From Candidatus Electrothrix yaqonensis (GTDB lineage Bacteria > Desulfobacterota > Desulfobulbia > Desulfobulbales > Desulfobulbaceae): 32,000 bases of DNA. A program made the translations under genes and the position numbers. The number at the start of each line of letters is the position of its first letter. Positions within the stretch are counted from its first letter, which is position 1. This document shows positions 202-16,752 of the stretch, piece after piece. The notes beneath the pieces were generated by a model that worked only from the letters and a program-made list of their open reading frames with translations, was not told the DNA's origin and did no database searches. Location of the stretch: positions 1,530,001 through 1,562,000 of the forward strand of contig CP178758.1 of the NCBI GenBank assembly GCA_047651235.1, read 5' to 3'.

Positions 202-214
202 TCAGAGCCTTGGA

Positions 215-321: not shown

Positions 322-850
322 AGACAACGTTCCTTGTCATCAGTCCAGCTTTTCGGTAAATACAGCCGATAGTCGATTGGCGTGGAAAAACGGCCATATC
401 CCAAAGTCGCGAACACTGCTACCTGACAGTTGTCGGTTTTACCAAGCTGCCCGCACCATTGACGAGAAACCCCAACAGACATTTTACCCTTTTTGGGTAT
501 CCCGGATTCATCAATAAAAAGAGCGCTATCTTCCTTTCCTCCAAAAATGTTATCCGCATCTTTAGCTACTTGGTTGTTTACAGGACGCCAATCCCAGTTC
601 GATTCGGAAAGAAAATACTGGAGGGGCTCATATTTAACGCCCGGAACCTTTTCCTCCATACGTTCCATGTTTTTTTGTCAGACTGGAATAAACCTTTCAA
701 GTATTGGAATGCTTTATCTGACAAACTTACTGTATGTCTCTTAAAAAAGAGATGATATCTTTCGTGAAAAGACGTAAGTTGCCGGGCGATGCCGGTCAAC
801 TCAAAGAATTTGTCATGGGGACTTCTTTTTTCGGGGCTGGGAGCGTTCAT
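322..850 (-). pseudogene. IS701-family DDE transposase, N-terminal fragment (two frames joined at a T7/A7 run at 670-676)
   Basis: The translation contains QYFLSESNWDW and ALFIDESGIPKKGKMSVGVSRQWCGQLGKTDNCQV, the classic IS701-family N-terminal/first-Asp region. The upstream frame (578-850) carries the family N-terminus up to QSDKK. Confidence 0.75.
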
Positions 851-1025
851 AAAAAGAATAAAGTTATAATCAGGGCGATTGACGGGTATTTTTTTGATAG
901 CTGTTATCAGGTGCTAGCTTGATCAAAAAGCGATAAAATCTTCCTAATGAAAGATACAACTTTATCCGGATATTGCAAGAAGTTTTTACAAATAGATCAA
1001 AAGGTTATGGTTGACAAAGTAGAAG
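322..1025 (-). mobile_element. IS701-family element copy A: left end and 5' half, truncated at 321/322 by the MITE/IS630 insertion
   Basis: The terminal sequence CAAAGTAGAAG at 1015-1025 matches the ends of copies B and C. The internal sequence is near-identical to 15544-16250. Confidence 0.8.
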
Positions 1026-1097
1026 TAAACCCAGTTGCTTTAGATTTCCTTTGCAGATTAATTTTAAAGTGTTCGATCTGCATCTGGATAAAATTAT

Positions 1098-1967
1098 TCA
1101 GCCTAAATTGGAGGTTACCGCCGCAACAGCAAAAAACTCCACCCCGTGTCGATCTGACCCCTTGATTAATTCCGGTGCCTCTCTCCAGCTATGTTTCTGC
1201 AAGAACGACGAAAGCTCTTCAGGCCGGATACTCCACACCCACGGCTCGCCGACAACTCTTTGCAGCCAAAGCATCAACCCGGTCCACCTCCCCACATATG
1301 GCCGACCATCTTCGCCGCTGGGAATGTAGGAAAAGGCGATGCGCGATCCCTGACCGACACTTGCCGCGCATTGCCTGAACAAGGATTGCACAGCTTCCGT
1401 TGGTAAATACATGACAAGCCCTTCGGCAAGGATAACGCTTTGCGCAGTTACGTCCCAATTCGCATTTGTTCCCAGCACATCAGACAGTTCCCTCTCACCC
1501 AAATCCTCAGCGATCAGATGCAAATTCTCACTTGCTCCTAACGCCTCAATCCCTTTCTGTTTCAGAGAAGATGTGGCCGGATGATCAATTTCAAAAAAAT
1601 GTACGCCCGGAAACTCCGGTGCCAATCGACAGCACAGGGTATCATATCCTGCTCCGAGGACAAGCACCTGGGTCGCTCCGCTGCTGATACTGTCTCGTAC
1701 CTGCTGTTCACAGAAGGCCTTGCGATGGGCAAATGCCTCAAACTGACCCGGCAACATCCAGTCAAAGGCTTCATACACAGCAATCATTCTGGGAGAGCGG
1801 GCCAACCGGACTGTCCTTTCCCCGGCAGCACCTGATGCAACAAGTAACTGTGCCGTGGCATCAACAATCCCGTGCGGAAGAACCGCGTCCATTCCGGGTT
1901 GAGAGCCAAGAGTGACAATGTTCAGAGCGACCTTGCGGGCCGTCATGCTCGGTTTGTTGTGCTTCAT
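1098..1967 (-). CDS. Class I SAM-dependent methyltransferase (leucine carboxyl / TIGR00027-like O-methyltransferase family)
   Basis: 289-aa ORF. Contains VLVLGAGYDT (SAM-binding glycine motif), EIDHP and ILAEGLVMYL, typical of the LCMT/PF04072 family. Its start overlaps the stop of the upstream gene by 4 nt. Confidence 0.75.
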   Translation of the reverse strand: MKHNKPSMTARKVALNIVTLGSQPGMDAVLPHGIVDATAQLLVASGAAGERTVRLARSPRMIAVYEAFDWMLPGQFEAFAHRKAFCEQQVRDSISSGATQVLVLGAGYDTLCCRLAPEFPGVHFFEIDHPATSSLKQKGIEALGASENLHLIAEDLGERELSDVLGTNANWDVTAQSVILAEGLVMYLPTEAVQSLFRQCAASVGQGSRIAFSYIPSGEDGRPYVGRWTGLMLWLQRVVGEPWVWSIRPEELSSFLQKHSWREAPELIKGSDRHGVEFFAVAAVTSNLG

Positions 1968-2542
1968 CTGATAATTTTTACGATTTCAGCTTCCTTTCTC
2001 TTGGGCACAGGAGGGATGTTTTCCGGGTAGCCCAGGATGATCGGGGCAACAATTGTACAGTTGTCCGGTATCGCCAGCTCCTTCAGCATCTCTGGGTCAT
2101 GTATCTCAGTGCCGAGATTCACCCAGCATGTTCCCAAGCCTCTGGAGCTTGCCGCCATCATGAAATAACTGGCTGCCAAGGCACAATCGACAGAGAGATT
2201 CTTCAGATGAGAAAGTCCGAGAATCATCACCAGACATGGCGCATTGTAGAAGACATTGAACGATTCATTCTCCAGCATCCCTTGGTATTTCTTGGCATAA
2301 TCATCGGGATTGGCGGCAATGCGGGCCAGGATGTTTTTCTTGCTCTCGTCCGAGATTTTCTGCAGCATCTCCCTGTTGTTAACGATGATAAACTTCCAGG
2401 GCTGCTCGTTCCCTGCATTGGGGGCAAGCGTGCTTTCCTTGATCATCTCCTGGATAAGATCGACAGCTACAGGTTTGTCCTGGTATTTCCCTACGGAGCG
2501 TCGATTCTTGAGTAACTCTTTAAATGTCATAATGTTATCCAC
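1964..2542 (-). CDS. Nitroreductase-family protein
   Basis: 192-aa ORF with RRSVGKY near the N-terminus, a PNAGNEQPW motif and typical nitroreductase length. It overlaps the downstream methyltransferase start by 4 nt (1964-1967), which suggests an operon. Confidence 0.8.
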   Translation of the reverse strand: MDNIMTFKELLKNRRSVGKYQDKPVAVDLIQEMIKESTLAPNAGNEQPWKFIIVNNREMLQKISDESKKNILARIAANPDDYAKKYQGMLENESFNVFYNAPCLVMILGLSHLKNLSVDCALAASYFMMAASSRGLGTCWVNLGTEIHDPEMLKELAIPDNCTIVAPIILGYPENIPPVPKRKEAEIVKIIR

Positions 2543-2578
2543 CGAGATTCTGATTGGATGAGGTCGTTTTGCCGTAGC

Positions 2579-3583
2579 CTATCTAGTAACCCTGAATAAT
2601 ACAAACGACGGAATCAGCATTTCACTTTTAATTTTACGATAGCCTGCTTTTTTTAGCTGATCATGTATTTGCTTTGGACTAGGAAGAGGGCCGTAGCCAT
2701 CTGTCATGGAGGTCCATAAATTCATAAGACTCAGAGATGGATCCTTCCCCTTACACATACTTGTTAATATTAATTCGCCACCGGGCTTTAAATGCTCCCC
2801 AAGTTCTTTTAAAAGATCAATTCTTTCATCAAGAGGGAAGTAATAGATAAGATTATAAAATGTAACCAGATCAAAATCTGACTTGCTTTCATATTTTCGA
2901 ATATCTGTATTTTCAATATCGACGCGATCTTCAAAGTCCCAGGTTTTAATATTTTCTCTTGCGAAATCCGCAACGCTTTGCTGAACTTCCAAGCCAACCG
3001 CAGTTAATAAGGGATTCAGTTCACAGGCACGTTTAATATAAATTCCTGAGCCACAACCGACCTCCAACAATCGATAGGGTTTGCTTTTGGGTATAATTTT
3101 ATCAACAACATCAAGCAAAACAGGCTCAAGTGTTCGTGAGGATCTGGCAACTAGTTCCCCATGAGCTTCGCTGTATTTAAACTGCATATTTTTTTTGAGC
3201 ATTGAAGGTGTATTAACAATAAAATTATAAAAAACCTCAGATCGTACTTGTAAAAACGCATGCCATGTATCATTGGATGGCTTTACAAGTTCTTTAGAGA
3301 GTTTGCCTTTAATGGAATACCCCCTGGCGCTTTTTTTAAGTTCACCAAGACTGACACCTAAATCGAGCCACGCCCTGAGGCCTTCAGAATTGAAATCCGA
3401 TTGAAATAATTTTTGTATTTCCTCAAATGTAGCAGGCTTAGATTGCATGATATCATACATGCCTTCAGAAATTGCCGTTAAGACAAAACCTGTACGACAG
3501 GTCTCTTTAGTTAATTTGCCGATACGGAGCATCAGCATTACAGGTGTGTTCGAAAAGAATTTAATTAATGATTTTATCGCCAT
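2579..3583 (-). CDS. Class I SAM-dependent (O-)methyltransferase with N-terminal helical/dimerisation region
   Basis: 334-aa ORF with LLEVGCGSGIY (motif I), a DLVTFYNLIYYF acidic-loop region and LKPGGELIL (motif III). It is visibly more AT-rich than neighbouring genes. Confidence 0.75.
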   Translation of the reverse strand: MAIKSLIKFFSNTPVMLMLRIGKLTKETCRTGFVLTAISEGMYDIMQSKPATFEEIQKLFQSDFNSEGLRAWLDLGVSLGELKKSARGYSIKGKLSKELVKPSNDTWHAFLQVRSEVFYNFIVNTPSMLKKNMQFKYSEAHGELVARSSRTLEPVLLDVVDKIIPKSKPYRLLEVGCGSGIYIKRACELNPLLTAVGLEVQQSVADFARENIKTWDFEDRVDIENTDIRKYESKSDFDLVTFYNLIYYFPLDERIDLLKELGEHLKPGGELILTSMCKGKDPSLSLMNLWTSMTDGYGPLPSPKQIHDQLKKAGYRKIKSEMLIPSFVLFRVTR

Positions 3584-3710
3584 ATGAACTCCTTGATAAG
3601 AAAATTTGCCTTGTGGGTTATGATTAAAAACACATAACGTTTAGCTGTGCCGCCCTGCTTTTTGGGTCGGCACAAGTGGTTGTCTGGGCAGCATGATAAC
3701 TGCTTACAAA

Positions 3711-4202
3711 TTAATATATTCCAGGAATCAACCTATATCGTACCCGTCGTACATATACTTTATATCCTCTCAATTCTTCATGAAGCGTTCTGTCTTCTAT
3801 TTTCGTTCTTATCACGGCGATTATTATGGCTATGACTACTGGAATCAATGTCCACACTGAACCTAAAGCAAGAACAATACCTGGAAGTGCCAACATATTT
3901 CCGGCATAGCCCGGATGTCGCACAATCCGATAGGGACCACTGTCACACACTACATGCCCTCGGTCCACCTGAATACGCACCACGCTGGAGAAAAAGCGAT
4001 TCTCTATCAATGCCCACTCAGCGAAAGCGTATCCGATCGAGATCAAAAGGAAACCGAGCATGATGAGCCACAACGGGAATACGGGTGACCAGCCAAAACG
4101 ATGATCTAACCCGGCCACAATGACAAGTGGGAAACTCACACTCAGTGCCATCAATGGTGCAAGTACTTTGTCCCAAGCTTTCGCGCCTTGGACTTTCTCC
4201 AT
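3711..4202 (-). CDS. Isoprenylcysteine carboxyl methyltransferase (ICMT/PEMT)-family membrane protein, probably 5'-truncated by IS copy B
   Basis: Contains GPYRIVRHPGYAGNML plus several hydrophobic helices. The listed ORF start (4265) lies inside IS-derived sequence (IS end at 4223), so the first non-IS Met is at 4202. The reading frame stays open into the IS. Confidence 0.65.
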   Translation of the reverse strand: MEKVQGAKAWDKVLAPLMALSVSFPLVIVAGLDHRFGWSPVFPLWLIMLGFLLISIGYAFAEWALIENRFFSSVVRIQVDRGHVVCDSGPYRIVRHPGYAGNMLALPGIVLALGSVWTLIPVVIAIIIAVIRTKIEDRTLHEELRGYKVYVRRVRYRLIPGIY

Positions 4203-4222
4203 ATTTTGTCGTTCAGCTGTTA

Positions 4223-5400
4223 CTTCTACTTTGGCACTCACAAAGGCTGTGGTAATAATTTGCAATTCCGTTGTTTCTCATATGCGAAATCAATCGAAGC
4301 TTGCCTCTTTTCATGCCGTTGACAAAGCTGTCTTATAACTTCATCTTCGTTTACATCTCGACGTGGAAAATTGACTTGAGTAATGTTGTTATATCAGCGC
4401 AACTCAATAACGGGACACCGACTTGATGGTATAATCGTTGCTCGACCATAAACAACATGGCCATCATGACCATAGTCATATGATGATGCCAAGCCAGCCA
4501 TCCCCGAGCCTGATAATCACCCATTCCACATTCATTTTTTGCATCCTGAAATGGCCGTTCAACCCAATATCGTTGAGCTTGCATATATGCAAGTCGTCTT
4601 GTTGACGTGTTACTTTCCGCATTACTTAGGCTATATTTAATTTTTTTCGGGGACTTAACCTCACGTCTGACAACTAATTCTACTTTGGTGACCATACCAT
4701 TAACTATTTAATAATATTAATAATACTAAAAACAGGGGTTTTTAAATACTTAATAAAAATAAGCTAGTTATGTTTATGATCGCCAAAGTAGAACTACTTG
4801 ACAGTTGTCGGTTTTACCAAGCTGCCCGCACCATTGACGAGAAACCCCAACAGACATTTTACCCTTTTTGGGTATCCCGGATTCATCAATTAAAAGAGCA
4901 CTGTTTTTCCTCCCTCCTAAAAGTTTATCTGCATCTTTAGCTACTTGGTTGTTTACAGGACGCCAATCCCAGTTCGATTCGGAAAGAAAATACTGGAGGG
5001 GCTCATATTTAACGCCCGGAACCTTTTCCTCCATACGTTCCATGTTTTTTTGTCAGACTGGAATAAACCTTTCAAGTATTGGAATGCTTTATCTGACAAA
5101 CTTACTGTATGTCTCTTAAAAAAGAGATGATATCTTTCATGAAATGACGCAAGTTGTGGGGCGATGCCGGTCAACTCAAAGAATTTGTCATGGGGACTTC
5201 TTTTTTCGGGGCTGGGAGCGTTCATAAAAAGAATAAAGTTATAATCAGGGCGATTGACGGGTATTTTTTTGATAGCTGTTATCAGGTGCTATCTTGATCA
5301 AAAAGCGATAAAATTTTCCTAATGAAAGATACAACTTTATCCGGATATTGCAAGAAGTTTTTACAAATAGATCAAAAGGTTATGGTTGACAAAGTAGAAG
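4223..5400 (-). mobile_element. IS701-family element copy B: both ends present, catalytic middle replaced by a 116-bp AT-rich insert
   Basis: The ends are CTTCTACTTTGGCAC (4223-) and GACAAAGTAGAAG (-5400). N-terminal transposase fragment at 4797-5225. C-terminal fragment at 4351-4677 with YWVERPFQDAKNECGMGDYQARGWLAWHHH (Y-x2-R-x3-E region). Confidence 0.8.
4678..4793. mobile_element. 116-bp AT-rich MITE-like insert carrying the same termini as the IS701-like element
   Basis: It starts TTCTACTTTGGTG (4678-4690) and ends CGCCAAAGTAGAA (4781-4793). These are inverted repeats of each other and match the IS termini. The interior is non-coding and very AT-rich. Confidence 0.6.
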
Positions 5401-5441
5401 TGAGACATTCACTGAGAAGCCGCTTCAACTTGTTGTAAAGT

Positions 5442-5469
5442 TGTCGGAACACCTACCCTATGAAGAGGG
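5442..5469 (+). repeat. Hairpin repeat copy R1 (3' tail diverged)
   Basis: TGTCGGAACACCTACCCTATGAAGAGGG. It shares the GTCGGAACACC leader and the TACCCT-ATGAAG-AGGG stem-loop with R2-R4. Confidence 0.75.
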
Positions 5470-5526
5470 GGGAAGACAAAGAGGCGGTCCTTGTGATCAC
5501 CTTTTTTTTCTCGTTACTCTCCAGAG

Positions 5527-5556
5527 TTGCAAGTATCACCCAATATCAGCTACAAT
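5527..5556 (+). promoter_or_regulatory. Candidate sigma70-type promoter for the vapBC-1 cassette
   Basis: TTGCAA (5527-5532), an 18-nt spacer, then TACAAT (5551-5556), about 60 nt upstream of the antitoxin ATG at 5618. Confidence 0.4.
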
Positions 5557-5617
5557 AGTTTGTAGAGATCATACCCTTCACGCAACGAAATTACGCAGAC
5601 ACGAGGAAATAAACATT

Positions 5618-5884
5618 ATGGACGCAGTACTTGAACAGCTTCTTGAGGATGCTGGTGGTCTCCCGAAGGAAATGCAAAAAGAGGCACTAAACTTTGTGCG
5701 TTTTCTGAAAAGCAGGTTACCCACTCAGCAGTCTCGGGCAAAAGAACAGAAACCCAATGGTGAAAAATTGATCCGTTTGCTCCAGGAAGCCTCAGGAAAA
5801 AAATTATTCTCTCATATTCAGGATCCGGCTGCCTGGCAGCGGGATCTGCGCTGCGACAGATCTCTTCCGGGGAGAGAAGCCTGA
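5618..5884 (+). CDS. DUF2281-type antitoxin (VapB-like partner of the downstream PIN toxin)
   Basis: The internal Met at 5618 has a GAGGAA RBS 8 nt upstream. Contains LPKEMQKEALNFVRFLKSR and the C-terminal WQRDLRCDRSLPGRE signature. The stop overlaps the vapC ATG. The longer listed ORF (from 5441, TTG) starts inside repeat R1 and is not credible. Confidence 0.7.
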   Translation: MDAVLEQLLEDAGGLPKEMQKEALNFVRFLKSRLPTQQSRAKEQKPNGEKLIRLLQEASGKKLFSHIQDPAAWQRDLRCDRSLPGREA

Positions 5885-6243
5885 TGCTTCTTGATAGCAA
5901 TATTATTATTTACTCCTTTCTTCCTGAATTTCAAATTCTTCAGGAAATCTTGAGGAACAGCGAGGTTTCCTGTTCCGTCATCAGCTGTGTGGAAACTCTG
6001 GGGTATCACGCACTGTCAGAAGATGAACAACATTACTTGCAATTGTTCTTTGAGACGATTGCAGTATTACCGATAACGCAGTCTGTTATCGACACAGCCA
6101 TTGTATTGCGCCAACAGAGAAAAATGTCGTTGGGGGATGCTCTGGTCGCGGCTACGGCCCTTGAGCACCATCAGACTCTTGCGACACGAAATGTTAAAGA
6201 TTTTGAATGGGTGGAGGGGCTGAAGGTGATTAATCCTCTCTGA
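5884..6243 (+). CDS. vapC: PIN-domain toxin VapC
   Basis: 119 aa. It has the MLLDSNIIIY N-terminal acidic motif and a C-terminal LGDALVAATA...LATRNVKDF. It is translationally coupled to the upstream antitoxin. Confidence 0.85.
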   Translation: MLLDSNIIIYSFLPEFQILQEILRNSEVSCSVISCVETLGYHALSEDEQHYLQLFFETIAVLPITQSVIDTAIVLRQQRKMSLGDALVAATALEHHQTLATRNVKDFEWVEGLKVINPL

Positions 6244-6280
6244 CAACTGCCTATCCTATGAAGAGGGTATTAAGATGTAG
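6241..6280 (+). repeat. Hairpin repeat copy R2
   Basis: TGACAACTGCCTATCCTATGAAGAGGGTATTAAGATGTAG. It begins with the vapC stop codon. The stem TATCCT/AGGGTA carries one C-to-T change that still pairs as G-U in sense RNA. Confidence 0.8.
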
Positions 6281-6307
6281 GGGCGACCGGTCGGTCGCCC
6301 TTTTTTT
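6281..6307 (+). terminator. Rho-independent terminator after vapBC-1 and R2
   Basis: GGGCGACC-GGTC-GGTCGCCC stem-loop followed by T7 (6301-6307). Confidence 0.8.
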
Positions 6308-6388
6308 GTGCCCCCGAAAAACATCAGTCAAACACAAGAACAAGGAAATGCTCTGTACGCCTGTCATGGAATGAGATATAATTGATCC

Positions 6389-6682
6389 ATGATACAGTCG
6401 TTCAAAAACGCGGGTACAGAAGATATTTTTGACGGCTCAGCATCCCGAGCTGCAAGAAAATGCTGTCCGAAGTCCATTTGGCCTGTGGCCCGTCGAAAGC
6501 TGGATCAAATTAACCGAATCAGAGAAATCGGTGAACTCAGGATTCCTCCTGGAAACCGCCTGGAACGCCTCAGAGGTGACCGGGATGATCAATACAGCAT
6601 ACGAATTAATCAGCAGTATCGAATCTGCTTTCAATGGGAGAACAGCCATGCATGCGAAGTCGAAATCACTGACTACCACTGA
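6389..6682 (+). CDS. higB: HigB-family toxin (RelE/ParE superfamily, plasmid-maintenance killer protein)
   Basis: 97 aa with RKLDQINRIREIGELRIPPGNRLERLRGDRDDQYSIRINQQYRICFQWE...VEITDYH, a near-consensus HigB (PF05015) signature. Confidence 0.9.
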   Translation: MIQSFKNAGTEDIFDGSASRAARKCCPKSIWPVARRKLDQINRIREIGELRIPPGNRLERLRGDRDDQYSIRINQQYRICFQWENSHACEVEITDYH

Positions 6683-7011
6683 AAGACCAGCTGGTCGGCG
6701 CCTGCCCCGGCAACGCCCTCCGACGCATCCCGGCGAGATGCTTGCCGAGGAGTTTGTCAAACCCCTGGGTATAACAAGAAAAGAACTTGCTCGACGTTTA
6801 GATGTTTCATACTCTTCTCTTATTGATATCGCTCAAGGAGCGACGCTCAATAACTCCATACACCGCCCTTCGGCTATCTCAGGTGCTCGGTATGTCAGCG
6901 GACTTCTGGTTGGGGCTCCAGCAGGATTGGGATCTTTGGCACGCCATGAACAGCCCTGAAGCAAAAAAGATTTCCCGTTTAAAACCCATTGCAACGCTTG
7001 CGAATAAATAA
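6648..7011 (+). pseudogene. higA: HigA-family HTH antitoxin, apparently frameshifted within the HTH (about 6825-6845)
   Basis: The N-terminal part sits in the frame of ORF 6429-6959 (PTHPGEMLAEEFVKPLGITRKELARRLDVSYSSLIDIAQG). The C-terminal part sits in the frame of ORF 6802-7011 (RRSITPYTALRLSQVLGMSADFWLGLQQDWDLWHA). The total of 364 nt is not a multiple of 3. Confidence 0.7.
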
Positions 7012-7012
7012 T

Positions 7013-7088
7013 CCACCCCCAAAGGGGGTGGTATTGGGTTTACCCCTAAAAGGGGATAAGGATGCCTCTTGCCCCCAGAGGGGGCGAG
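7013..7088. repeat. Three tandem C-run / 3-nt loop / G-run hairpins
   Basis: CCACCCCC-AAA-GGGGGTGG (7013-7031), CCCCT-AAA-AGGGG (7043-7055) and CTTGCCCCC-AGA-GGGGGCGAG (7068-7088, one G-U). Confidence 0.7.
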
Positions 7089-7107
7089 GTGTTGTCCCCG
7101 ATTTAAA

Positions 7108-7200
7108 TTAGAATAACCGTAGTTGGTTACGTTCGGCTTGGCGTTCTTTTTCTTCCTGATACTTTACGTAGCGACGTATTTTCTCAGCGCCTAAACCTAC
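7108..7200 (-). pseudogene. C-terminal remnant of an IS200/IS605-type (Y1) TnpA or RAYT-like transposase, truncated by the MITE at 7203
   Basis: The minus-strand translation VGLGAEKIRRYVKYQEEKERQAERNQLRLF* resembles the conserved TnpA C-terminus (STVG..e.vr.YI..QE.ed...dql.l). There are only 30 codons, so the assignment is tentative. Confidence 0.45.
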
Positions 7201-7202
7201 AG

Positions 7203-7309
7203 TATAGCTGGAGCAGTATAAACTGAATACAGGATCAGCTATCTGAAAGGCGTGAAGGCAAAACTTATGCCTCTTGTGGGCATATTCAAATTATGTTGCT
7301 CCAGCTATA
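7203..7309 (+). mobile_element. 107-bp IS630-type MITE (copy 2)
   Basis: Same sequence as 8026-8132 and the reverse complement of 215-321, with TIRs TATAGCTGGAGCA and TGCTCCAGCTATA. Confidence 0.8.
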
Positions 7310-7322
7310 TCCAAGGCTCTGA

Positions 7323-8025
7323 TATAGCTGAAGCAGAATAAAATGAGTATTATATCGGCATGACATATTCAATAGATTTTCGCCGTAAAATTTTGGAAGT
7401 CAAAGAGCGGGACGGTCTGAGTTTCGAAAAAACCGCAGCCCGTTTCGGAGTCGGTAAATCCAGCGTGAGCCGATGGACGAAACGTGTCGAACCCTGCCGG
7501 AGCCGAAATAAACCGGCAACAAATATTGACATGGAACTGCTCGCCCGTGATGTTGAACTGTATCCCGATGCGTATCAGTATGAACGGTCGGAACGGTTCG
7601 GATGCAGCCAGCGCGGTATAGGGGAAGCTCTGAAACGCCTGAAAATCAGCCGTAAAAAAAACTCTTTCGCATCCGAAGGCGGATGAAAAGAAACGCTCTG
7701 TCTTTGTCGATAAAATCAGCACATATGAGGAATCCGGTTTTCCTCTGATTTATATTGATGAAAGCGGCTTCGCTCATGATATGCCGCGCACCTGCGGATA
7801 TGCGCCCGTAGGTGAACGATGCTCCGGTATTCATAATTGGCGGGAGAAGGGCCGTATCAATGCTGTCGGCGCACTGTCCGGGAAAAATCTGCTGACGGTG
7901 ACTCTGTTCGACGGGACCGTCAATTCCGATGTGTTTTATGCATGGATCAGGCAGGATTTATTACCGAAACTGCCTGAACGCAGTGTGGTTGTCATGGACA
8001 ACGCCTCTTTTCATAAACGTCGGGA
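7323..8025 (+). mobile_element. IS630-family element, left IR and about 60% of the transposase gene, truncated by MITE copy 3
   Basis: The left IR TATAGCTGAAGCAG at 7323 closely resembles the MITE TIR. The transposase sequence stops abruptly at NASFHKRRD, before the usual PPYSPDLNPIE region carrying the third catalytic residue. Confidence 0.8.
7360..8025 (+). pseudogene. IS630-family transposase (HTH N-terminus plus partial DDE domain), two frames joined at an A8 run, 3'-truncated
   Basis: Frame 1 (7360-7686) has the HTH region GLSFEKTAARFGVGKSSVSRW. The next frame continues TLSHPKADEKKRSVFVDKI...LIYIDESGFAHDMPRTCGYAPVGERC...SVVVMDNASFHK. The frames meet at A8 (7654-7661). Confidence 0.8.
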
Positions 8026-8132
8026 TATAGCTGGAGCAGTATAAACTGAATACAGGATCAGCTATCTGAAAGGCGTGAAGGCAAAACTTATGCCTCTTGT
8101 GGGCATATTCAAATTATGTTGCTCCAGCTATA
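8026..8132 (+). mobile_element. 107-bp IS630-type MITE (copy 3)
   Basis: Identical motif and TIRs. It interrupts the IS630 transposase on its left and abuts the IS701 3' end on its right. Confidence 0.8.
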
Positions 8133-8242
8133 AGACAGCTTTGTAAACGGCATGAAAAGAGGCAAGCTTCGATTGATTTCGCATATGAGAAACAACGGAA
8201 TTGCAAATTATTACCACAGCCTTTGTGAGTGCCAAAGTAGAA
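8133..8242 (+). mobile_element. IS701-family element, terminal 110 bp of the right end (remnant)
   Basis: It matches 16435-16543 of copy C (AGACAGCTT.GT.AACGGCATGAAAAGAGGCAAGCTTCGATTGATTTCGCATATGAG...GTGCCAAAGTAGAA). Confidence 0.8.
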
Positions 8243-8277
8243 TTAATACCCTCTTCATAGGGTAGGTGTTCCAACTG
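8243..8277 (-). repeat. Hairpin repeat copy R3 (3' tail cut by the IS701 end)
   Basis: The sense (minus-strand) sequence is CAGTTGGAACACCTACCCTATGAAGAGGGTATTAA. It starts immediately after the brnA stop codon (8278-8280). Confidence 0.8.
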
Positions 8278-8544
8278 TTAAGATGCCTTTGCCGCCGGGG
8301 AGGAAATTTTAGGCATATTTTGAATGAGCGCACGCAGGACAGCCTTTACGTCCTCGGCAGAAGAAAAGACTTGAGCCACATCCGAGTCAAGCACAACCAC
8401 CACGTTATCCTCGGTAACCCGTTCGGCAAACCGATTGGGGCGTGCCTTGCTGTAATCGAATCTGTACTCAGGTTGCAAGTCATCATGGCTTGAATGATCA
8501 GCTTTTTTCTTCATAATCCCTCTGCTCATGTTTCGTGGCTGCAC
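8278..8544 (-). CDS. brnA: BrnA-like antitoxin (start may be an internal Met, e.g. 8514)
   Basis: Contains PEYRFDYSKARPNRFAERV followed by VVVVLDSDVAQVF...VLRALI, typical of the antitoxins paired with DUF497/BrnT toxins. Confidence 0.65.
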   Translation of the reverse strand: MQPRNMSRGIMKKKADHSSHDDLQPEYRFDYSKARPNRFAERVTEDNVVVVLDSDVAQVFSSAEDVKAVLRALIQNMPKISSPAAKAS

Positions 8545-8770
8545 GCGAACTAATTATTCGAATAACGTCTTGTAACCGCTCAGTATAGCTTACCAGTAGT
8601 AGCCGCCTTTTTACAGATGCAGTGGCTTTCCGGCCTGAAAATATACGAATTATCGCCGTTTCCACGTCAATATGTTTTGCAACAGCAGGAAACTTGCTAC
8701 GACTGTATTTTCTGTAGAAAGGTCTCCGGTGTATGAACTTCCAACCCTGACTCCAATAAATCTTTTTCAT
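8498..8770 (-). CDS. brnT: BrnT-like (DUF497) toxin
   Basis: RRLLLVSYTERLQDVIRIISSRAATKHEQRDY matches the BrnT C-terminal signature, and FYRKYSRSKFPAVAKH aligns with FEWD..K...N..KH. The only plausible Met (8770) lies inside the 3' end of the upstream PIN gene, so the start is uncertain. Confidence 0.6.
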   Translation of the reverse strand: MKKIYWSQGWKFIHRRPFYRKYSRSKFPAVAKHIDVETAIIRIFSGRKATASVKRRLLLVSYTERLQDVIRIISSRAATKHEQRDYEEKS

Positions 8771-9110
8771 TTCTTGTGATAATGATTGAGATATTCTTCT
8801 GTTGAGCGGAATAGGCCTGCACTGCATCTTCAAAGTCCGACATATCAGATTGTAGCGCCCTCATAATCACCTCTTTATCCACCGATGCAACGTCAAAAAA
8901 ACAGAGCAGATCGTCGATAAATGACAATGCGGTCTCTCTTCCTTTTGCCTTACTGGTGATATAATACAAATCTGTAATTGTCGTGGCCGTCATGACCAAT
9001 TGGATTGAATGCTGCTGAGCTTCTTTAAAGAATCTTACGGCGTGTTCGACAAATGGTTCTCTGTTCAAGGCGATATCAAGAATCACATTTGTATCAACCA
9101 GAACCTTCAC
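8697..9110 (-). CDS. vapC: PIN-domain toxin VapC (second copy, unrelated in sequence to the first)
   Basis: A GTG start at 9110 overlaps the antitoxin stop (GTGA). Contains VLVDTNVILD, then DFEDAVQAYSA, then IITRNEKD, the PIN acidic residues. Confidence 0.8.
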   Translation of the reverse strand: MKVLVDTNVILDIALNREPFVEHAVRFFKEAQQHSIQLVMTATTITDLYYITSKAKGRETALSFIDDLLCFFDVASVDKEVIMRALQSDMSDFEDAVQAYSAQQKNISIIITRNEKDLLESGLEVHTPETFLQKIQS

Positions 9111-9337
9111 TTGTATTTTTCCTTTAAATATTGAAGCTTCAAATCGTCTGAGACGGTTCCCCGTAAAAAACCTGTCCACTTTTCCAGGAATTGCTCCATA
9201 CTTCGCTCCTGACTGGTGTTCTCTGCCTGCTTGATGACAACAAAAACCTCAACCTGCCTTTCGGCATATTGAGAAATTTCAGGGAGTTTAATCACTCCAT
9301 TTCTCAATACCGTAGTTTTAAACTTATACGCTTCCAT
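9107..9337 (-). CDS. Small antitoxin, AF2212/DUF104-like partner of the PIN toxin
   Basis: 76 aa. VLRNGVIKLPEISQYAERQVEVFVV resembles the GV.KPLE...LPEG..V.V pattern of DUF104 antitoxins. It is translationally coupled to vapC. Confidence 0.6.
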   Translation of the reverse strand: MEAYKFKTTVLRNGVIKLPEISQYAERQVEVFVVIKQAENTSQERSMEQFLEKWTGFLRGTVSDDLKLQYLKEKYK

Positions 9338-9491
9338 TTTTTCTATCCTTTTCCTGTTGAGCAGAGAAACTCTGCACAGATAACTGCTTGCAGTGAATTA
9401 TCGAAGCTGACAGAAATATTGTACCCGATTTCAGCTGGGGGTGTTCGTTCTGTCTCGGTGGAAACATCAAGGGCAGACACATGGGGCTGCT

Positions 9492-9532
9492 CTACATTAA
9501 AATACCCTCTTCATAGGGTAGGTGCTACGACA
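9492..9532 (-). repeat. Hairpin repeat copy R4
   Basis: The sense (minus-strand) sequence is TGTCGTAGCACCTACCCTATGAAGAGGGTATTTTAATGTAG. It lies 64 nt downstream of the cas6 stop and upstream of the vapBC-2 cassette. Confidence 0.8.
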
Positions 9533-9596
9533 GCGGCCTTGATTTAAACAATAATGGATTCAGCAAATTAAGCAAGTAAAATTTTACCATACAAGC

Positions 9597-10541
9597 TCAC
9601 CGGCACAGCACCTGATACCGCCCAAACCCCTTACTGGCTTGCTTGCCGATATGGAGCCACTGACCAAGCAAGAGAAAAGGCCAGAACAGCTCCGGCTCTG
9701 CAGGCGCAAAATCTACCGTCCCCAGAAATCCCCTGAACTCGACCACCTTGCCCTGTCGCGCTGACCAGCAGGTGGTCTTGTGCGAACGCAGATCAATACT
9801 GATAAGCTCGGATTGCGTAGCACATTCCTTGAGTGCCCGGAAGTCGGCCTCCAGGGGACAACCCATATAAAAATACTGGAGCAGGGAAATGCGCCGAATC
9901 ACCGCCATGATCAGGCGGCTGATCTCAAGCCTTTCCGGGCGAAAGGACTTGTCCGAGGGCAGGTAGGGGGTGAGGAACTGGATGCGCACAGCAGCGGGTG
10001 CAGGCGGCATCGGGATTGGTTCCATCATACTGTCCCGAACCTCCCCCTGCTGCTCCCAAATCAGCCGTTGACCATTGGGCAGCACCTGACTGACCTGAAC
10101 CAGTTCAGCCTTTGCCCTGTCCGATCCAAAGCCCAGCTGCCCTGATTTTGCCATGGCCCGAACCACCGCAGGCAAGCGTTTGCAGGCCGCCCCGGCCAGC
10201 ACCAGCCCGTGGCTGAATTGCCCACCCGGCGAAATATTCGCCTCACCGCATTGCTCACTGTGAAAGATATGGGGCAACGGCACGGTGCCCACCTTGCGCA
10301 TCATCCTGGCTTCTGGCGGCCTGGGGCCTTTGATGAAAAAGGCGAAATCGCATTGATGACAAAGCATGCAGTCGCTACAATCGGCATTCGGGGCGATGCA
10401 GCTCTGCTGATGCAAGGCCAGCCCGAACACACTGCGGCGGAGCGGATCGGAAAATTCCGGCAGGGTCAGGGAGTCACTGGCTGTAAAGGTGAAGCGGTAT
10501 TGGGCGATAATGAGGTTTGGAGCACACCGTACCCCGCTCAT
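9597..10541 (-). CDS. cas6: Cas6-family RAMP endoribonuclease (PF10040/DUF2276-like), solitary
   Basis: 314 aa. Has an N-terminal Cys cluster C-x6-C-x2-C-x2-C-x2-C (CIAPNADCSDCMLCHQC), an internal FLTPY...RRISLL segment, and the C-terminal glycine-rich loop WLHIGKQASKGFGRYQV, characteristic of this Cas6 family. Confidence 0.7.
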   Translation of the reverse strand: MSGVRCAPNLIIAQYRFTFTASDSLTLPEFSDPLRRSVFGLALHQQSCIAPNADCSDCMLCHQCDFAFFIKGPRPPEARMMRKVGTVPLPHIFHSEQCGEANISPGGQFSHGLVLAGAACKRLPAVVRAMAKSGQLGFGSDRAKAELVQVSQVLPNGQRLIWEQQGEVRDSMMEPIPMPPAPAAVRIQFLTPYLPSDKSFRPERLEISRLIMAVIRRISLLQYFYMGCPLEADFRALKECATQSELISIDLRSHKTTCWSARQGKVVEFRGFLGTVDFAPAEPELFWPFLLLGQWLHIGKQASKGFGRYQVLCR

Positions 10542-10843
10542 GCTCTGTCTCTTGTCAGGTTCATGATTTCGTCGGTGCTCATTTTTACCGTTGCTCTGCC
10601 GCGCAGCATGTCAAATTTGACACTCGGCTTGTATGTCTTGCATTTTAATGAGTTATTTTTGTTTTTCAGGGCAGGCAGATCCATGCCTTCGTTTTTATAT
10701 ATCTCAATCCACTCATCGACGATTCCGCAGAGTTCACGAAAAACTTCCTCTTCCTTTTCTCCGTGACAGCAGCGACCTATCCAGCCGGAAACCGAGCCAA
10801 TATAGCATTGATCTTCTTCCGACCACTCAACAAGCTTTATATA
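10538..10843 (-). pseudogene. HicB-like antitoxin-domain ORF lacking its own start, separated from upstream sequence by the IS5-family insertion
   Basis: The minus-frame translation is YIKLVEWSEEDQCYIGSVSGWIGRCCHGEKEEEVFRELCGIVDEWIEIYKNEGMDLPALK, the HicB_lk_antitox pattern (EWSEED.CY...PGC.AHG.T.EEA...W.E...). The stop TGA overlaps the cas6 ATG (ATGA, 10538-10541). There is no in-frame ATG/GTG/TTG before residue 54. Confidence 0.6.
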
Positions 10844-10845
10844 TC

Positions 10846-11878
10846 AGACCTCCTGCAAAACTTGGTGATTTGACAGAAACGGCGGATGCTGATATTTTTT
10901 CGGTCACTTTTTCGATTATCAACCCCGGAGGTCTGAAAATCATGCTCACATTCGAAAAACTCTCCCGCCGCCCTGAAACATTCCGCCGTCTGACCGGTGT
11001 CGATATTGATCTTTTCAACGGAATGACGGAAAAGATCCGCCCTTTATGGGAAGAGCGGAGAGATAATTTTGAAAAGGGCGGGAGAAAGCACAACTTGGAA
11101 GGAGCTGAAAACCACCTTCTCGCCATGCTCCTGCGAAGTCTTCGCTTATCTATTACCGTTGTTACGTGACATATGAGTTCCTCAGTTTTTTCTTCGATTC
11201 CGATGAGACGACGGTGATGCGCGCAGTGAAACGGATGGAAAAAATCGCGGTACGGGTGATTCATATTGAAAAAAAGCGTGAAATCACACGGGAAGATGCG
11301 GAATACCTGATAATCGATGCGACGGAACAGCCGGTTCAGCGCCTGAAGAAAGGACAGAAGAAGTATTACAGCGGAAAGAAGGGAAAACACACGCTCGGAA
11401 CGCAGTTTACCGCCGGTCCCGACGGACGGATTTTTTCGGTTTCGGCGTCGTATCCCGGAAGTGTTCATGATTTCAGGATATATAAGGAACAGAAGGGGCG
11501 GGAGCGTTTTCACGGTATTCCGAAGAAGGCCGACAGCGGATATCAGGGAATCGCGGCATATGACCGGCGCGCCGAAATTCCCTTTAAAAAGCCCCGGAAC
11601 GGTGAACTGACCGCCGAACAGAAGGCATATAATCTTGATTTATCGAAAAAACGTATCAAAGTTGAGCATGTCATAAGAGAGGTGAAGGTATTTAAAATCA
11701 TGTCGGAAACATACCGGAACAGGCTTAAAGGCCATAATATAAAGAAAAATATCATATCCGGCATAGTGAATATGAAGGTTGCGGCACGGAAAATGAAGAA
11801 AGCTGCCTGAAGCGGAAAATTTTGAAAAAGGGAAAAACCTCACCGCCTGAGAAGAACAGGCAGTTCTGCAGGAGGTCT
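10846..11878 (+). mobile_element. IS5-family (DDE_Tnp_4-type) insertion sequence, about 1.03 kb
   Basis: The terminal inverted repeats are AGACCTCCTGCAAAACT (10846-) and AGTTCTGCAGGAGGTCT (-11878). It encodes a two-ORF transposase. Confidence 0.8.
10942..11810 (+). pseudogene. DDE_Tnp_4-type transposase in two frames (10942-11169 and 11166-11810); a -1 shift is needed near 11135-11150
   Basis: OrfA is MLTFEKLSRRPETFRRLTGVDIDLF...GGRKHNL..ENHLLAMLL. OrfB is YYRCYVTYEFLSFFFDSDETTVMRAVKR...LIIDATEQPVQR...SGKKGKHTL..Q......GRIF.VS.SYPGSVHDF..Y. No obvious slippery heptamer lies at the junction, so the gene may be inactivated. Confidence 0.7.
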
Positions 11879-11880
11879 AA

Positions 11881-12144
11881 GGTAGCAGCGATCTTCTCCC
11901 TATCCGGTTCAGGCTTGCGTGCCTGGAGTTCCGCGCCAGCCACCTCATGCTCCAGCTCAGCCCGTACCTCGTTCGGCAGGCCGGGCAGCTCGGTCTTGAG
12001 GGCGGCGATGATTTTGAGCAGATCCTCCACCGGGGCCTGCGGCCCGCCGAGATTAACCTGCTTGCCGATGGCTCCGTCGCCCTGAGCGATGTTCTGATCA
12101 CCGCTGCCGCTGTTAATGGTGGTATTGTTATAGCTGTTTCCCAT
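11881..12144 (-). pseudogene. N-terminal part of an IS-disrupted gene (Asn/Gly-rich segment plus helical segment; function unknown)
   Basis: The ATG at 12144 has a strong RBS (GAGGTG, 6-nt spacer). The translation is MGNSYNNTTINSGSGDQNIAQGDGAIGKQVNLGG...LKTELPGLPNEVRAELEHEVAGAELQARKPEPDREKIAATL, and then the IS begins. Confidence 0.5.
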
Positions 12145-12289
12145 ATCTTCCACCTCACTCCTGTTTTCCTTCTCCGCATAATACACCCGAACAAGCCAAA
12201 AACACGCTTGAGCAAATGCTTCCGCACCAGTATGATGTACAGGTTTACCTGTCTGAATCTACAAACAACTGTACCATAATCTTCCTGCC

Positions 12290-15175: not shown

Positions 15176-15543
15176 CTCGGCGGGGGTACTTTCCCAAACC
15201 CTATCTTGCCATTTTTGTATAACTATTGTTCTGTCTTTTACCGCTTGCACCGACTTATTGGTTTTGTTCAAACGGTTCAGATTGTGGCTCGCTGCGCTCG
15301 CACAATCTAACCTTATTCGATGGAGTTGTGAAGAATTTTGCGCCTCCGCTGACACCAATTACCGTAGTAATTAATGCCACATAATGCAGAATACGAGTGG
15401 AATGAGCTTGGAAAGTGCGGTGAAAATGCCACGTGACTTATTCAGCCCCTCTCTCTGTTCTTTTAGATCCGTCAGAACAGTTGGAATTCGCTTGGTTCGG
15501 AACTTTATCAATGCGGTTTCCGCATCAGTAAGGTGAAACATAG

Positions 15544-16544
15544 TTCTACTTTGTCAACCATAACCTTTTGATCTATTTGTAAAAACTTCTTGCAATATCC
15601 GGATAAAGTTGTATCTTTCATTAGGAAGATTTTATCGCTTTTTGATCAAGCTAGCACCTGATAACAGCTATCAAAAAAATACCCGTCAATCGCCCTGATT
15701 ATAACTTTATTCTTTTTATGAACGCTCCCAGCCCCGAAAAAAGAAGTCCCCATGACAAATTCTTTGAGTTGACCGGCATCGCCCGGCAACTTACGTCTTT
15801 TCACGAAAGATATCATCATTTTTTTAAGAGACATACGGTAAGTTTGTCAGATAAAGCATTCCAATACTTGAAAGGTTTATTCCAGTCTGACAAAAAAACA
15901 TGGAACGTATGGAGGAAAAGGTTCCGGGCGTTAAATATGAGCCCCTCCAGTATTTTCTTTCCGACTCGAACTGGGATTGGCGTCCTGTAAACAACCAAGT
16001 AGCTAAAGATGCGGATAACATTTTTGGAGGAAAGGAAGATAGCGCTCTTTTTATTGATGAATCCGGGATGCCCAAAAAGGGGAAGATGTCTGTCGGGGTT
16101 TCTCGTCAATGGTGCGGGCAGCTTGGTAAAACCGACAACTGTCAGGTAGCAGTGTTCGCGACTTTGGGATATGGCCGTTTTTCCACGCCAATCGACTATC
16201 GGCTGTATTTACCGAAAAGCTGGACGGATGACAAGGAACGTTGTCTTAAGGCTAAGGCTCGGGGATGGCTGGCTTGGCATCATCATATGACTATGGTCAT
16301 GATGGCCATGTTGTTTATGGTCGAGCAACGATTATACCATCAAGTCGGTGTCCCGTTATTGAGTTGCGCTGATATAACAACATTACTCAAGTCAATTCTT
16401 CCACGTCGAGATGTAAACGAAGATGAAGTTATAAGACAGCTTCGTCAACGGCATGAAAAGAGGCAAGCTTCGATTGATTTCGCATATGAGAAACAACCGA
16501 ATTGCAAATTATTACCACAGCCTTTGTGAGTGCCAAAGTAGAAG
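15544..16544 (+). mobile_element. IS701-family element copy C: both ends present, internal deletion derivative (about 1 kb)
   Basis: The ends are TTCTACTTTGTCAACC (15544-) and GTGCCAAAGTAGAAG (-16544). The 209-aa ORF fuses the N-terminal 116 residues directly to the C-terminal ARGWLAWHHH... segment, so the catalytic core is missing. Confidence 0.85.
15718..16529 (+). pseudogene. IS701-family transposase, internally deleted (frames 15718-15990 and 15900-16529 joined at an A7 run)
   Basis: It has the same N-terminal motifs as copy A, and the A7 run lies at 15892-15898. The deletion junction is at about 16248-16262 (ERCLKAKARGWLAWHHH). Confidence 0.8.
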
Positions 16545-16752
16545 TAACCATCGGCTTCTGTTTGATGCTGATGGTCTTGATCAGCTTGATATAGCTGCGA
16601 GTAATACAAGGGAGAATTGAGGCTCTATCCAAATCGATTGTCCACGCATTGTGCCGAGATCCAAGCTCTGCCTAAAGGCTGTTCGTTCAGCCCTTTGATG
16701 AGCTTCAGAAACTCAGAACGGTGTAACATCAGCTTTTCCCGGAAAAGATGTA

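Follow-up and report, generated by a model that had tools for sequence, protein, structure and literature searches.

The cas6 gene and its product

The window, i.e., the whole 32-kb stretch of DNA that was analysed, carries on its minus strand a 314-aa ORF (9597–10541), which we call cas6 on the basis of PF10040, PADLOC, an AF2 model compared by Foldseek, family-invariant residues and dN/dS. Upstream it overlaps an antitoxin-like frame, which in turn abuts an IS element, and downstream it is followed by the remnant of a CRISPR leader and a single repeat. The initial annotation had taken the ORF for a Cas6-family RNase, and this assignment holds. The product, in which HIGKQASKGFGRY is present, matches PF10040 with an E-value of 2.7e-11 and 44.5 bits (cutoff 25) in the Pfam profile search, and PADLOC Cas6 PDLC01477 with an E-value of 8.8e-69; the latter match spans positions 3–294 of 296 and is therefore full-length. 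Homologues contain both PF27225 (AF_1859_N) and PF10040 (CRISPR_Cas6), the domain pair of type III-B Cas6. The HMM searches proposed along with the annotation had a mixed outcome, in that PF10040 scored above its cutoff, but TIGR01877 reached 14.2 bits against a cutoff of 58.65, and UPF0150 on the antitoxin-like frame 18.5 against 27.3. TIGR01877 is the model of a different Cas6 subfamily, and because the score lies far under its cutoff, the family assignment is based on PF10040, PADLOC and the fold.

The AF2 model (pLDDT 88.2, pTM 0.87) adopts a tandem ferredoxin-like/RRM fold, as in the double-RRM type III-B Cas6 proteins, and its top Foldseek matches in the PDB are Cas6 structures (best E 5e-13); a PDB search with the sequence returned no meaningful match. 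Structural relatives are Sulfolobus 4ILL, TTHB231 of T. thermophilus (4C9D) and the Cas6 domain of the Marinomonas Cas6-RT-Cas1 protein (6DD5). A cysteine cluster C-x6-C-x2-C-x2-C-x2-C had been named as a hallmark of the family. All five cysteines (C48, C55, C58, C61 and C64) are present in the window protein, but only four of them (C48, C55, C58 and C64) are kept across the family, C61 being R or G in most homologues. The resulting CX6CX2CX5C motif in the N-domain sets this family apart from type III-B Cas6 at large, as does the TIGR01877 score. By contrast, the C-terminal G-rich loop, GKQASKGFGRY, conforms to the GKxAxxGFGxY of type III-B Cas6. In an alignment of 15 Cas6 homologues, K300, G305 and G307 show no variation and G299 and Y309 almost none, and every family-invariant residue is kept in the window copy.

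The dN/dS of cas6 against its homologues is 0.10–0.16, and it is 0.12–0.13 for two comparison pairs among other homologues. Judged by its sequence, the gene looks intact and under purifying selection, and the protein, if expressed, would probably still cleave repeat RNA. We infer that it acts as an ordinary metal-independent endoribonuclease on repeat hairpins, with a predicted cut in the pre-crRNA 8 nt from the 3′ end of the repeat; its substrates would be arrays elsewhere in the genome or the nearby solitary repeats, and it would not be a toxin. A promoter scan toward cas6 returned weak consensus matches (9/12) at 10922–10894, inside the IS end, and at 10669–10642, inside the antitoxin-like frame, which are no evidence of expression.

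CRISPR remnants and mobile DNA around cas6

It had been noted earlier that no other cas gene and no array accompany cas6. Indeed, cas6 is the only cas gene of the 32-kb window, which lacks a multi-repeat array, and tblastn with Cmr1–6 and Csx1 from L007, one of the relatives' loci (numbered with L) discussed below, found nothing in it. In lacking cmr genes and a multi-spacer array, the window differs from type III-B loci, whose cas6 orthologues adjoin cmr1–6 and arrays of a 36-nt hairpin repeat ending in ATTAAGAC. However, a leader, a repeat and a trailer beside cas6, as well as three further solitary repeats, had been missed. The leader remnant (9532–9592, minus strand) lies directly 3′ of the cas6 stop codon and is followed by solitary repeat R1 (GTCGTAGCACCTACCCTATGAAGAGGGTATTTTAAT; 9496–9531, minus strand), a 36-nt terminal-type repeat with a degenerate 3′ end, and then by an array trailer with a GC-rich hairpin (9450–9495, minus strand). 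Window positions 9501–9590 are 94% identical to the leader and first repeat of the L007 array (L007 14362–14451), and the 65 nt from the cas6 stop to the repeat match the distance in L012. Over positions 1–31 of its 36, R1 is an exact match to the array repeat GTCGTAGCACCTACCCTATGAAGAGGGTATTAAGAC, and its hairpin has a 6-bp stem and a 6-nt loop. Homologous trailers follow the end of the L007 array as well as the solitary units at L007 16124–16170 and in L006. What cas6 precedes here is a spacerless leader-repeat-trailer unit and no array. The unit is conserved at 89% in L007 and L006 and may for this reason predate the rearrangement of the window. An "orphan" cas gene can retain a leader and one repeat that are invisible to array searches.

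The other three repeats lie farther from cas6. R2 (8243–8275, minus strand) stands directly after orf88, an 88-aa ORF, and has lost its 3′ end to an IS whose terminus lies at 8242; the same arrangement recurs in L019 (12398–12702), where an orf88 homologue (92%) adjoins a repeat. R3 (5443–5477, plus strand) is 35 nt long with both ends recognisable and lies upstream of a PIN cassette. R4 occupies 6244–6276 of a unit on the plus strand (6244–6307) that also includes a terminator-like hairpin and T-run (6280–6307); the repeat directly follows the PIN stop codon, its 5′ part has been replaced, and the unit is 95% identical to L006 1496–1557. All four solitary repeats are members of one repeat family, of which about 40 copies stand in a run in an E. 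aarhusensis locus. An identity of the 24–36-nt repeat as integron attC or REP was considered and dropped on account of this run of about 40 repeats, its spacing of about 70 nt and the 42 exact matches in that locus. An Rfam scan of the window returned no CRISPR-DR and no other family at the gathering score.

Between R1 and R2 lies a TA cassette (8278–9337, minus strand) comprising a 76-aa putative antitoxin (9107–9337), a toxin (8697–9179) matching Pfam PIN_3 with an E-value of 2e-20, and orf88 (8278–8544). TA cassettes are recurrently placed between CRISPR repeats. The island had been described as made almost entirely of TA modules; PIN/antitoxin and HigB modules do lie near cas6 (Pfam, ORF list), but IS debris (DDE_5, IS630 and DDE_Tnp_4 fragments) and methyltransferase genes are equally prominent.

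An IS element on the plus strand (10846–11878) abuts the antitoxin-like frame. Its DDE_Tnp_4/DDE_Tnp_1 transposase (Pfam) is split into two frames (about 10942–11169 and 11166–11810), and its terminal inverted repeats are 17 nt long (10846–10862 and 11862–11878). Neither flank holds a matching target duplication or the missing 5′ end of the antitoxin-like frame, which indicates an IS-associated rearrangement.

A chimeric antitoxin frame joined to cas6

The frame upstream of cas6, here hicB′ (10538–10843, minus strand), had been described as a HicB-like ORF. The residues quoted for it are present and its N-domain appears to be of the HicB type, but the ORF is incomplete. It is open for 101 codons from an in-frame TGA at the IS end, and its first ATG, GTG or TTG is at 10684, from where the product would be only 48 aa long. 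Compared with its full-length homologues P0030/P0031, which start MKERDQ-YIKLVEW, it lacks the first six codons (MKERDQ), and it has no start codon because the 1,033-bp IS removed them.

Codons 1–57 make up a probable HicB/UPF0150-type N-domain, with a predicted beta-beta-beta-alpha secondary structure and 55–62% identity over some 57 residues to HicB proteins of HicAB modules (PF05534/PF21748, UPF0150-like). The AF2 model of the frame (pLDDT 44) is unusable. Apart from the sub-threshold Pfam score and the missing start codon, hicB′ differs from these HicB proteins in that no C-terminal RHH/HTH DNA-binding domain was found, a VapB-type tail taking the place of the RHH segment in an alignment with canonical homologues, and in that no HicA gene occurs among the window ORFs and Pfam scans or beside hicB′ in L007–L011.

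The tail (about codons 58–101) belongs to a different kind of system. VapBC modules consist of an AbrB/SpoVT-type VapB (MazE_antitoxin, PF04014) and a PIN toxin, VapC (PF01850); an intact example, PIN + MazE_antitoxin by Pfam, lies at L017 19911–20539. The likeness of the window to VapBC covers the last ~35 residues of hicB′ (KPSxKFxxLRGxATxKMSTDEIMxLTRDR), the ATGA overlap and the next ~3 codons, whereas hicB′ is 5′-truncated, has a HicB-type domain in place of the AbrB DNA-binding N-domain, and is followed by cas6 instead of vapC. Homologues of the tail were found in L017 VapB and at 65 metagenomic loci. The AbrB/SpoVT-type motif is present at 49 of these 65, a downstream ORF at 59, and of the latter 51 show the VapC-type start pattern and 33 the same ATGA overlap. 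On these alignments hicB′ reads as a chimera, in which a HicB N-domain has been combined with the C-terminal part of a VapB of the AbrB type, an antitoxin that is normally paired with a PIN toxin (VapC); it clearly illustrates how antitoxins shuffle their domains. When metagenomes were scanned with P0030, the HicB-N and VapB-tail families turned up separately, and no further full-length chimera was found. The dN/dS of hicB′, 0.15–0.23, implies that it was once a working gene; the truncated frame itself is presumably a pseudogene without control over Cas6.

The ATGA at 10538–10541 that had been reported to link the cas6 ORF to the upstream open frame (10541–10843) is real. Homology to the L017 vapB-vapC pair continues across it and ends at 10531. 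The junction ATGAGCGGGGTAC (10529–10541, minus strand) comprises the overlap of vapB stop and vapC start plus vapC codons 2–4, in frame with cas6 at about codon 4 (compare ATGAGCGGGGT with ATGAACGGAGT). The window Cas6 begins MSGVR-CAPNL, while its close homologues begin M-x-x-C-T-P-x-L and the VapC partners of the hicB′ tail family begin M-x-G-[VIL]; unlike in other type III-B Cas6 proteins, the N-terminal 4–5 residues are thus those of a vapC start. It appears from these comparisons that the overlap is a vapB-vapC junction, and that the deletion of vapC spared its first four codons (MSGV), which are now fused in frame to cas6. The vapC 5′ remnant is short (10 matches in 13 nt), and the breakpoint between vapC and cas6 is placed at this position by inference. 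Beyond the first ~10 nt of the vapC start, no PIN gene overlapping the VapB-type tail is present at the window junction. The other end of the gene is preserved in L007–L009, where the last 19 vapC codons stand after hicB′ (89% identity in amino acids, 91% in nucleotides). In all, vapC is lost at three different junctions with the antitoxin surviving. An intact intermediate, with cmr1 diverging from hicB′-vapC-cas6, was found in no genome examined.

Loci of relatives and the origin of the arrangement

A neighbourhood survey of close Cas6 homologues, as had been proposed, covered 13 contexts in Candidatus Electrothrix and Electronema. The HicB-like neighbour is not conserved, and cas genes and arrays are not absent: cmr (type III-B) genes and/or an array of the same family are adjacent or within ~10 kb, and hicB′ stands directly upstream of cas6 in none of the 13. 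Conversely, hicB′, whose proteins form two distinct clusters (L007–L009 and L010–L011), is paired with cas6 at none of these loci. The L002 Cas6 (55% identity) heads cas6-csx1-cmr1–6; in L004/L020 and in L014 a cmr operon diverges from cas6, which is followed by the array; repeats follow cas6 in L012 and L016; and cmr genes lie 1–8 kb from cas6 in L018, L017, L015 and L001. The general layout in relatives is cmr6 to cmr1 on one strand, and cas6, a leader of ~65 nt and the array on the other.

In some lineages a TA cassette fills the gap between cmr1 and cas6. The cmr1-adjacent slot is occupied by a divergent hicB′ in L007–L009 and L010–L011, and by an intact vapB-vapC pair in L017, next to a cmr1-like gene, whereas L003 and L019 have an unrelated 133-aa HicB with an RHH domain. 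hicB′ has no similarity to the L003 HicB, and the two are independent insertions. In L019, the HicB replaced the first 233 codons of cas6 and now stands upstream of the cas6 fragment, and hence it arrived by destructive insertion.

Taken together, we consider it likely (probability about 0.8) that a type III-B (Cmr) CRISPR-Cas locus, in a cable bacterium resembling Candidatus Electrothrix, has here decayed to a stump and been scrambled by IS elements. The initial annotation had offered such decay and IS-driven scrambling of a CRISPR-Cas locus as its alternative, and the contexts of the homologues, the leader and repeat remnants and the IS truncation all support it. The original cassette would have consisted of the chimeric antitoxin gene (HicB N-domain plus VapB tail) followed by the PIN toxin gene vapC. 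Deletion of vapC would then have brought the ATGA overlap, together with the first four codons of vapC, into frame with cas6, so that Cas6 took over the translation start of the toxin gene. Later, the 1-kb IS with its associated rearrangement would have removed the antitoxin promoter and first six codons, and split cas6 from the cmr operon. If so, a neat overlap of 4 nt that links an RNase gene to an antitoxin-like frame can arise as the scar of a deletion, and the case shows type III-B loci breaking down in cable bacteria under the traffic of IS elements and TA cassettes.

Improbable, though better placed than a toxin role for Cas6, is that the type III-B loci of Electrothrix use the HicB-type genes as functional accessories, for example to regulate the divergent cmr/cas6 promoters or, through addiction, to keep the locus stable, and that a real hicB′-cas6 operon was later hit by the IS. 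The divergent position of hicB′ beside cmr1 in L007–L009 and L010–L011, its dN/dS and the unrelated RHH-domain HicB in the same slot of L003/L019 speak for such a role, and clusters of TA genes with CRISPR loci have precedents such as pSYSA (PMC4963859). However, hicB′ has no DNA-binding domain, L004, L014 and L012 have cmr1 and cas6 diverging with no HicB-type gene between them, the L019 HicB came by insertion into cas6, and the vapC remnants place hicB′ in a PIN TA module. A CRISPR-related role of antitoxin-like genes such as hicB′ is at best conceivable, in view of the purifying selection, the recurrence by cmr1 in three lineages and the L019 HicB.

A similarly low probability is assigned to a repurposed RNA circuit, formed by the four solitary repeats together with the orphan Cas6, that would tie TA expression to CRISPR parts, whether by Cas6 processing of hairpins bordering TA-cassette transcripts or by repeat units acting as decoys for Cas6 or as regulators resembling crRNA. 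In the window, two TA cassettes have repeats on their flanks, as do similar ones in L006, L017 and L019, and solitary leader-repeat-trailer units are well conserved between genomes, at the 89% given above. Regulatory or anti-CRISPR roles have been documented for solitary repeat units (10.1101/2024.12.27.630466; PMC10651486), and the window repeats resemble CreA/crlRNA regulators and Racr anti-CRISPR RNAs in being isolated repeats outside arrays, some of them beside TA genes. They differ in their leader/trailer flanks, their IS-cut ends and the lack of detected spacer-like complementarity. No complementarity of at least 10 nt to neighbouring DNA was found after R1, R3 or R4, and the crlRNA/CreA-type reading was rejected for this reason. 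Moreover, the window has no Cmr effector, and R2 and R4 are truncated or degenerate with IS ends abutting, which fits debris of arrays invaded by mobile DNA. The window repeats are therefore best read as array remnants, for which a regulatory role is only a candidate.

Slightly less probable still is that CRISPR repeats and leader/trailer units of cable bacteria are sites at which TA and other small cassettes land or recombine, and that a stand-alone Cas6 is kept for the border hairpins and was here captured into a vapBC-type toxin slot. This would amount to a Cas6-dependent layer of TA or defence-gene regulation for which no Cmr effector is needed.

Returning to the decayed type III-B locus, it leaves very little room for the pairing proposed in the initial annotation, in which Cas6 would have been recruited into a TA-like pair, as its toxin or as an effector that processes RNA, with the HicB-like protein neutralising it. 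In its favour, 4-nt overlaps such as this ATGA are characteristic of TA operons, Cas6 belongs to the RNases, many TA genes lie around it, and it physically fills the position of the deleted toxin gene. Against it, the antitoxin frame is IS-cut and has no start codon, its tail is the VapC-binding tail of a VapB and, like the ATGA, derives from a vapB-vapC pair whose toxin gene was deleted, the HicB DNA-binding domain is missing, the pairing is unique to the window (0/13 other cas6 contexts and no hicB′ context), with the homologues located within type III-B loci and arrays or next to them, a leader and repeat still stand 3′ of cas6, and the conservation pattern of Cas6 equals that of its array-linked orthologues.

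CRISPR remnants around an intact cas6

The Cas6 in the window is intact and belongs to a type III-B family; a leader, a single repeat and a trailer lie next to its gene. The product of cas6 (9597-10541, minus strand; 314 aa) is a bona fide Cas6. It scores above threshold with Pfam CRISPR_Cas6, the PADLOC Cas6 model covers it end to end (E 8.8e-69), its AlphaFold model is confident (pLDDT 88) with Cas6 structures as the strongest PDB neighbours, and it retains the G-rich loop together with all residues that are invariant in the family. All of this agrees with the family assignment in the initial annotation. The TIGR01877 score falls below that profile's cutoff and, of the cysteine cluster described there, CX6CX2CX5C is the conserved family motif whereas the fifth cysteine is variable. 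The dN/dS estimates (Nei-Gojobori; 0.10-0.16 against eleven homologues, 0.12-0.13 in two comparison pairs among other cas6 homologues) give no sign of relaxed constraint on the window gene.

A CRISPR leader of ~60 nt lies directly 3' of the cas6 stop, with 94% identity to the leader and first repeat of the E. aarhusensis locus (L007), and is followed by a terminal-type repeat (R1, 9496-9531) and an array trailer (9450-9495). The stop-to-repeat distance of 65 nt equals that in locus L012, whose contig ends where the repeat sequence begins. A 24-nt word recurring in the window matches, 20-nt-for-20-nt, the repeat run of L007, in which about 40 copies are spaced ~70 nt apart; of the 42 exact matches in L007, one is a separate solitary unit. 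The repeat is GTCGTAGCACCTACCCTATGAAGAGGGTATTAAGAC, with a 6-bp hairpin stem. Further solitary repeats are R2 (8243-8275, minus strand), R3 (5443-5477, plus) and R4 (6244-6276, plus). Solitary repeat units elsewhere act as crRNA-like regulators (10.1101/2024.12.27.630466) or RNA anti-CRISPRs (PMC10651486). For those of the window a quick check showed no spacer-like complementarity, and they are therefore treated as array remnants. Cas6 is predicted still to cleave the repeat hairpin, leaving the usual 8-nt ATTAAGAC tag, and its substrates would be arrays elsewhere or the local solitary repeats.

A decayed type III-B locus

The closest homologues (72-87% identity) all come from Candidatus Electrothrix or Electronema, and the family is already annotated as Cas6 in Electrothrix MAGs; the window protein is a new member of this known family. 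Homologue contexts are type III-B loci. The gene order is cas6-csx1-cmr1-cmr2-cmr3-cmr4-cmr5-cmr6 in L002, a cmr operon divergent from cas6 and its array in L004/L020 and L014, and cas6 followed by repeats in L012 and L016; cmr genes lie 1-8 kb from cas6 in L015, L017, L018 and L001, and an AAA-ATPase/PDDEXK_9 gene lies 5' of cas6 in L003/L019, L006 and L013. The HicB-like gene of the window was found directly upstream of cas6 in none of 13 contexts, contrary to a conserved pairing, and a literature search returned no described Cas6-HicB system. Nothing supports either part of the proposal that Cas6 is a toxin controlled by the HicB-like frame.

The window locus is instead a decayed example of this known locus type, which supports the alternative raised initially, a CRISPR-Cas locus scrambled by IS activity; the original observation is partly confirmed. 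Its statement that other cas genes and arrays are absent holds for cmr genes, none being detectable in the window by tblastn, but overlooks the leader, repeat, trailer and three solitary repeats. Outside the island, the larger ORFs have housekeeping functions, among them RNase R, SpoT and glycosyltransferases. A literature search on cable-bacterium CRISPR loci found nothing specific.

A truncated chimeric antitoxin and its vapBC ancestry

Upstream of cas6 is an IS-truncated chimeric antitoxin frame (hicB'; 10843 down to 10541, minus strand), whose tail and junction are of vapBC ancestry. Its end overlaps the cas6 start through ATGA (10538-10541), as first described. However, it is not a complete ORF, since the frame has no ATG, GTG or TTG before 10684. 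It opens right after an in-frame TGA (10846-10844) inside the terminus of an IS element (10846-11878; 1,033 bp, 17-nt inverted repeats, DDE_Tnp_4 transposase split over two frames), and lacks the first six codons (MKERDQ) present in P0030 (107 aa) and P0031 (120 aa), its full-length homologues. On the far side of the IS lies a different gene, likewise truncated, with no target duplication to match, which points to an IS-associated rearrangement rather than a simple insertion. A 144-aa ORF (11752-12186, minus strand), its 3' end cut by the IS at 11878, has weak PADLOC matches (E 2e-4) to PDC-M14B, a candidate defence protein, and no other annotation.

The frame is a chimera: over its first ~57 residues it shares 55-62% identity with HicB antitoxins annotated under PF05534, whereas its tail is the C-terminal part of a VapB antitoxin of the AbrB/SpoVT type. 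Beyond the GKF motif common to both, KPSVKFDMLRGRATVKMSTDEIMNLTRDRA stands where PF05534 proteins have a ribbon-helix-helix segment. The intact VapB of E. laxa (L017) terminates in ...KMSTDEIMSLTRDRT, and its gene overlaps that of a 134-aa PIN protein via ATGA. A metagenome scan recovered 65 loci with the tail seen in hicB'. Of these, 49 have the AbrB-type motif, and in 59 an ORF follows at the junction; 51 of these 59 ORFs begin with the VapC-type start M-x-x-[VILF]-[LFIV]-[VIL]-D-[ST], mostly M-x-G-[VIL], and 33 of the 59 junctions have the ATGA overlap seen in the window.

In L007-9 the last 19 vapC codons trail hicB' (89% aa and 91% nt identity to L017), indicating an internal deletion of vapC, and in L010-11 homology ends at the hicB' stop codon, after which a brnTA pair follows. 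In the window, homology to vapBC spans the ATGA and about 7 nt more (ATGAGCGGGGT vs ATGAACGGAGT), and Cas6 begins MSGVR-CAPNL, compared with M-x-x-C-T-P-x-L, ~two residues shorter, in relatives. The simplest reading of these alignments is a deletion from about vapC codon 5 to about cas6 codon 3, which would have placed cas6 in frame behind the start of vapC. The "translational coupling" would then be an inherited vapB-vapC junction. This fusion probably came first; an IS would later have removed the 5' end of the antitoxin gene and the cmr side, and cas6 would now be transcribed by read-through or from a weak outward promoter. The dN/dS of hicB' (0.15-0.23; N-domain ~0.1, tail 0.22-0.35; Nei-Gojobori) indicates that the chimera used to be a working protein, even though truncation has since affected the copy in the window.

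The chimera (the window frame, P0030 and P0031), in which domain shuffling joined a HicB N-domain at GKF to the toxin-binding tail of a VapB, was seen in three Electrothrix-type lineages only. In all three it adjoins type III-B genes, and vapC was lost at different junctions with the antitoxin kept under purifying selection.

Toxin-antitoxin traffic, cassettes and IS debris

In L007-9 and L010-11, hicB' is divergent from cmr1 at about 190 nt, exactly the place of cas6 in L004, L014 and probably L012. Intact vapBC in L017 lies next to a cmr1-like gene that belongs to a second Cmr operon. An unrelated 133-aa HicB (PF15919 plus RHH_5) occurs in L003/L019 (L003 3467-4189, L019 3822-4541), where it separates cmr1 from a fragment of cas6 (aa 234-314) and has no HicA in its vicinity. 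This fragment and the window Cas6 share 86-89% identity, against 83% for the intact copy on the same contig; the HicB insertion destroyed the cas6 copy from which the fragment remains. Different TA genes therefore entered the cmr1-cas6 interval repeatedly, which fits the known clustering of TA and CRISPR loci, e.g., the nine TA modules of CRISPR plasmid pSYSA (PMC4963859).

TA and other small-gene cassettes also lie between III-B-family repeats, like giant spacers (window 5443-6307, plus strand, and 8243-9592, minus strand; L006 860-1560; L017 9526-9990; L019 6150-7640 and 12398-12702), their last gene often followed directly by a terminal-type repeat and a GC-rich hairpin/terminator. Those of the window read R3-[ORF+PIN]-R4 and leader/R1-[antitoxin+PIN+orf88]-R2, and the junction of orf88 (an 88-aa ORF) with the repeat is kept in L019 (92% aa). 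We consider it very improbable that the repeats serve as cassette borders processed by the retained Cas6. In three Electrothrix-type loci (L006 2200-4036, L007 14357-16201, L019 12674-13977), a PF04754 Transposase_31 gene (Rpn-like PD-(D/E)XK) lies between solitary leader-repeat-trailer units or at an array leader end, a placement that suggests repeat-associated recombination or leader duplication.

IS debris is dense at 1-8246 and 15541-16548, comprising DDE_5 copies or fragments (315-1027, 4794-5399, 15541-16253; 96-98% identical) and IS630-type fragments (7203-8132, with an inverted copy at 1-321), with common terminal sequences TTATGGTTGACAAAGTAGAAGT. The inversions and deletions by which the locus was scrambled likely had these copies and shared termini as substrates. 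IS copies also bracket a series of genes of methyltransferase type (LCM-like, class I SAM MTase, PEMT/ICMT-like) and a nitroreductase gene (1098-4265, minus strand), unrelated to the CRISPR and TA remnants.
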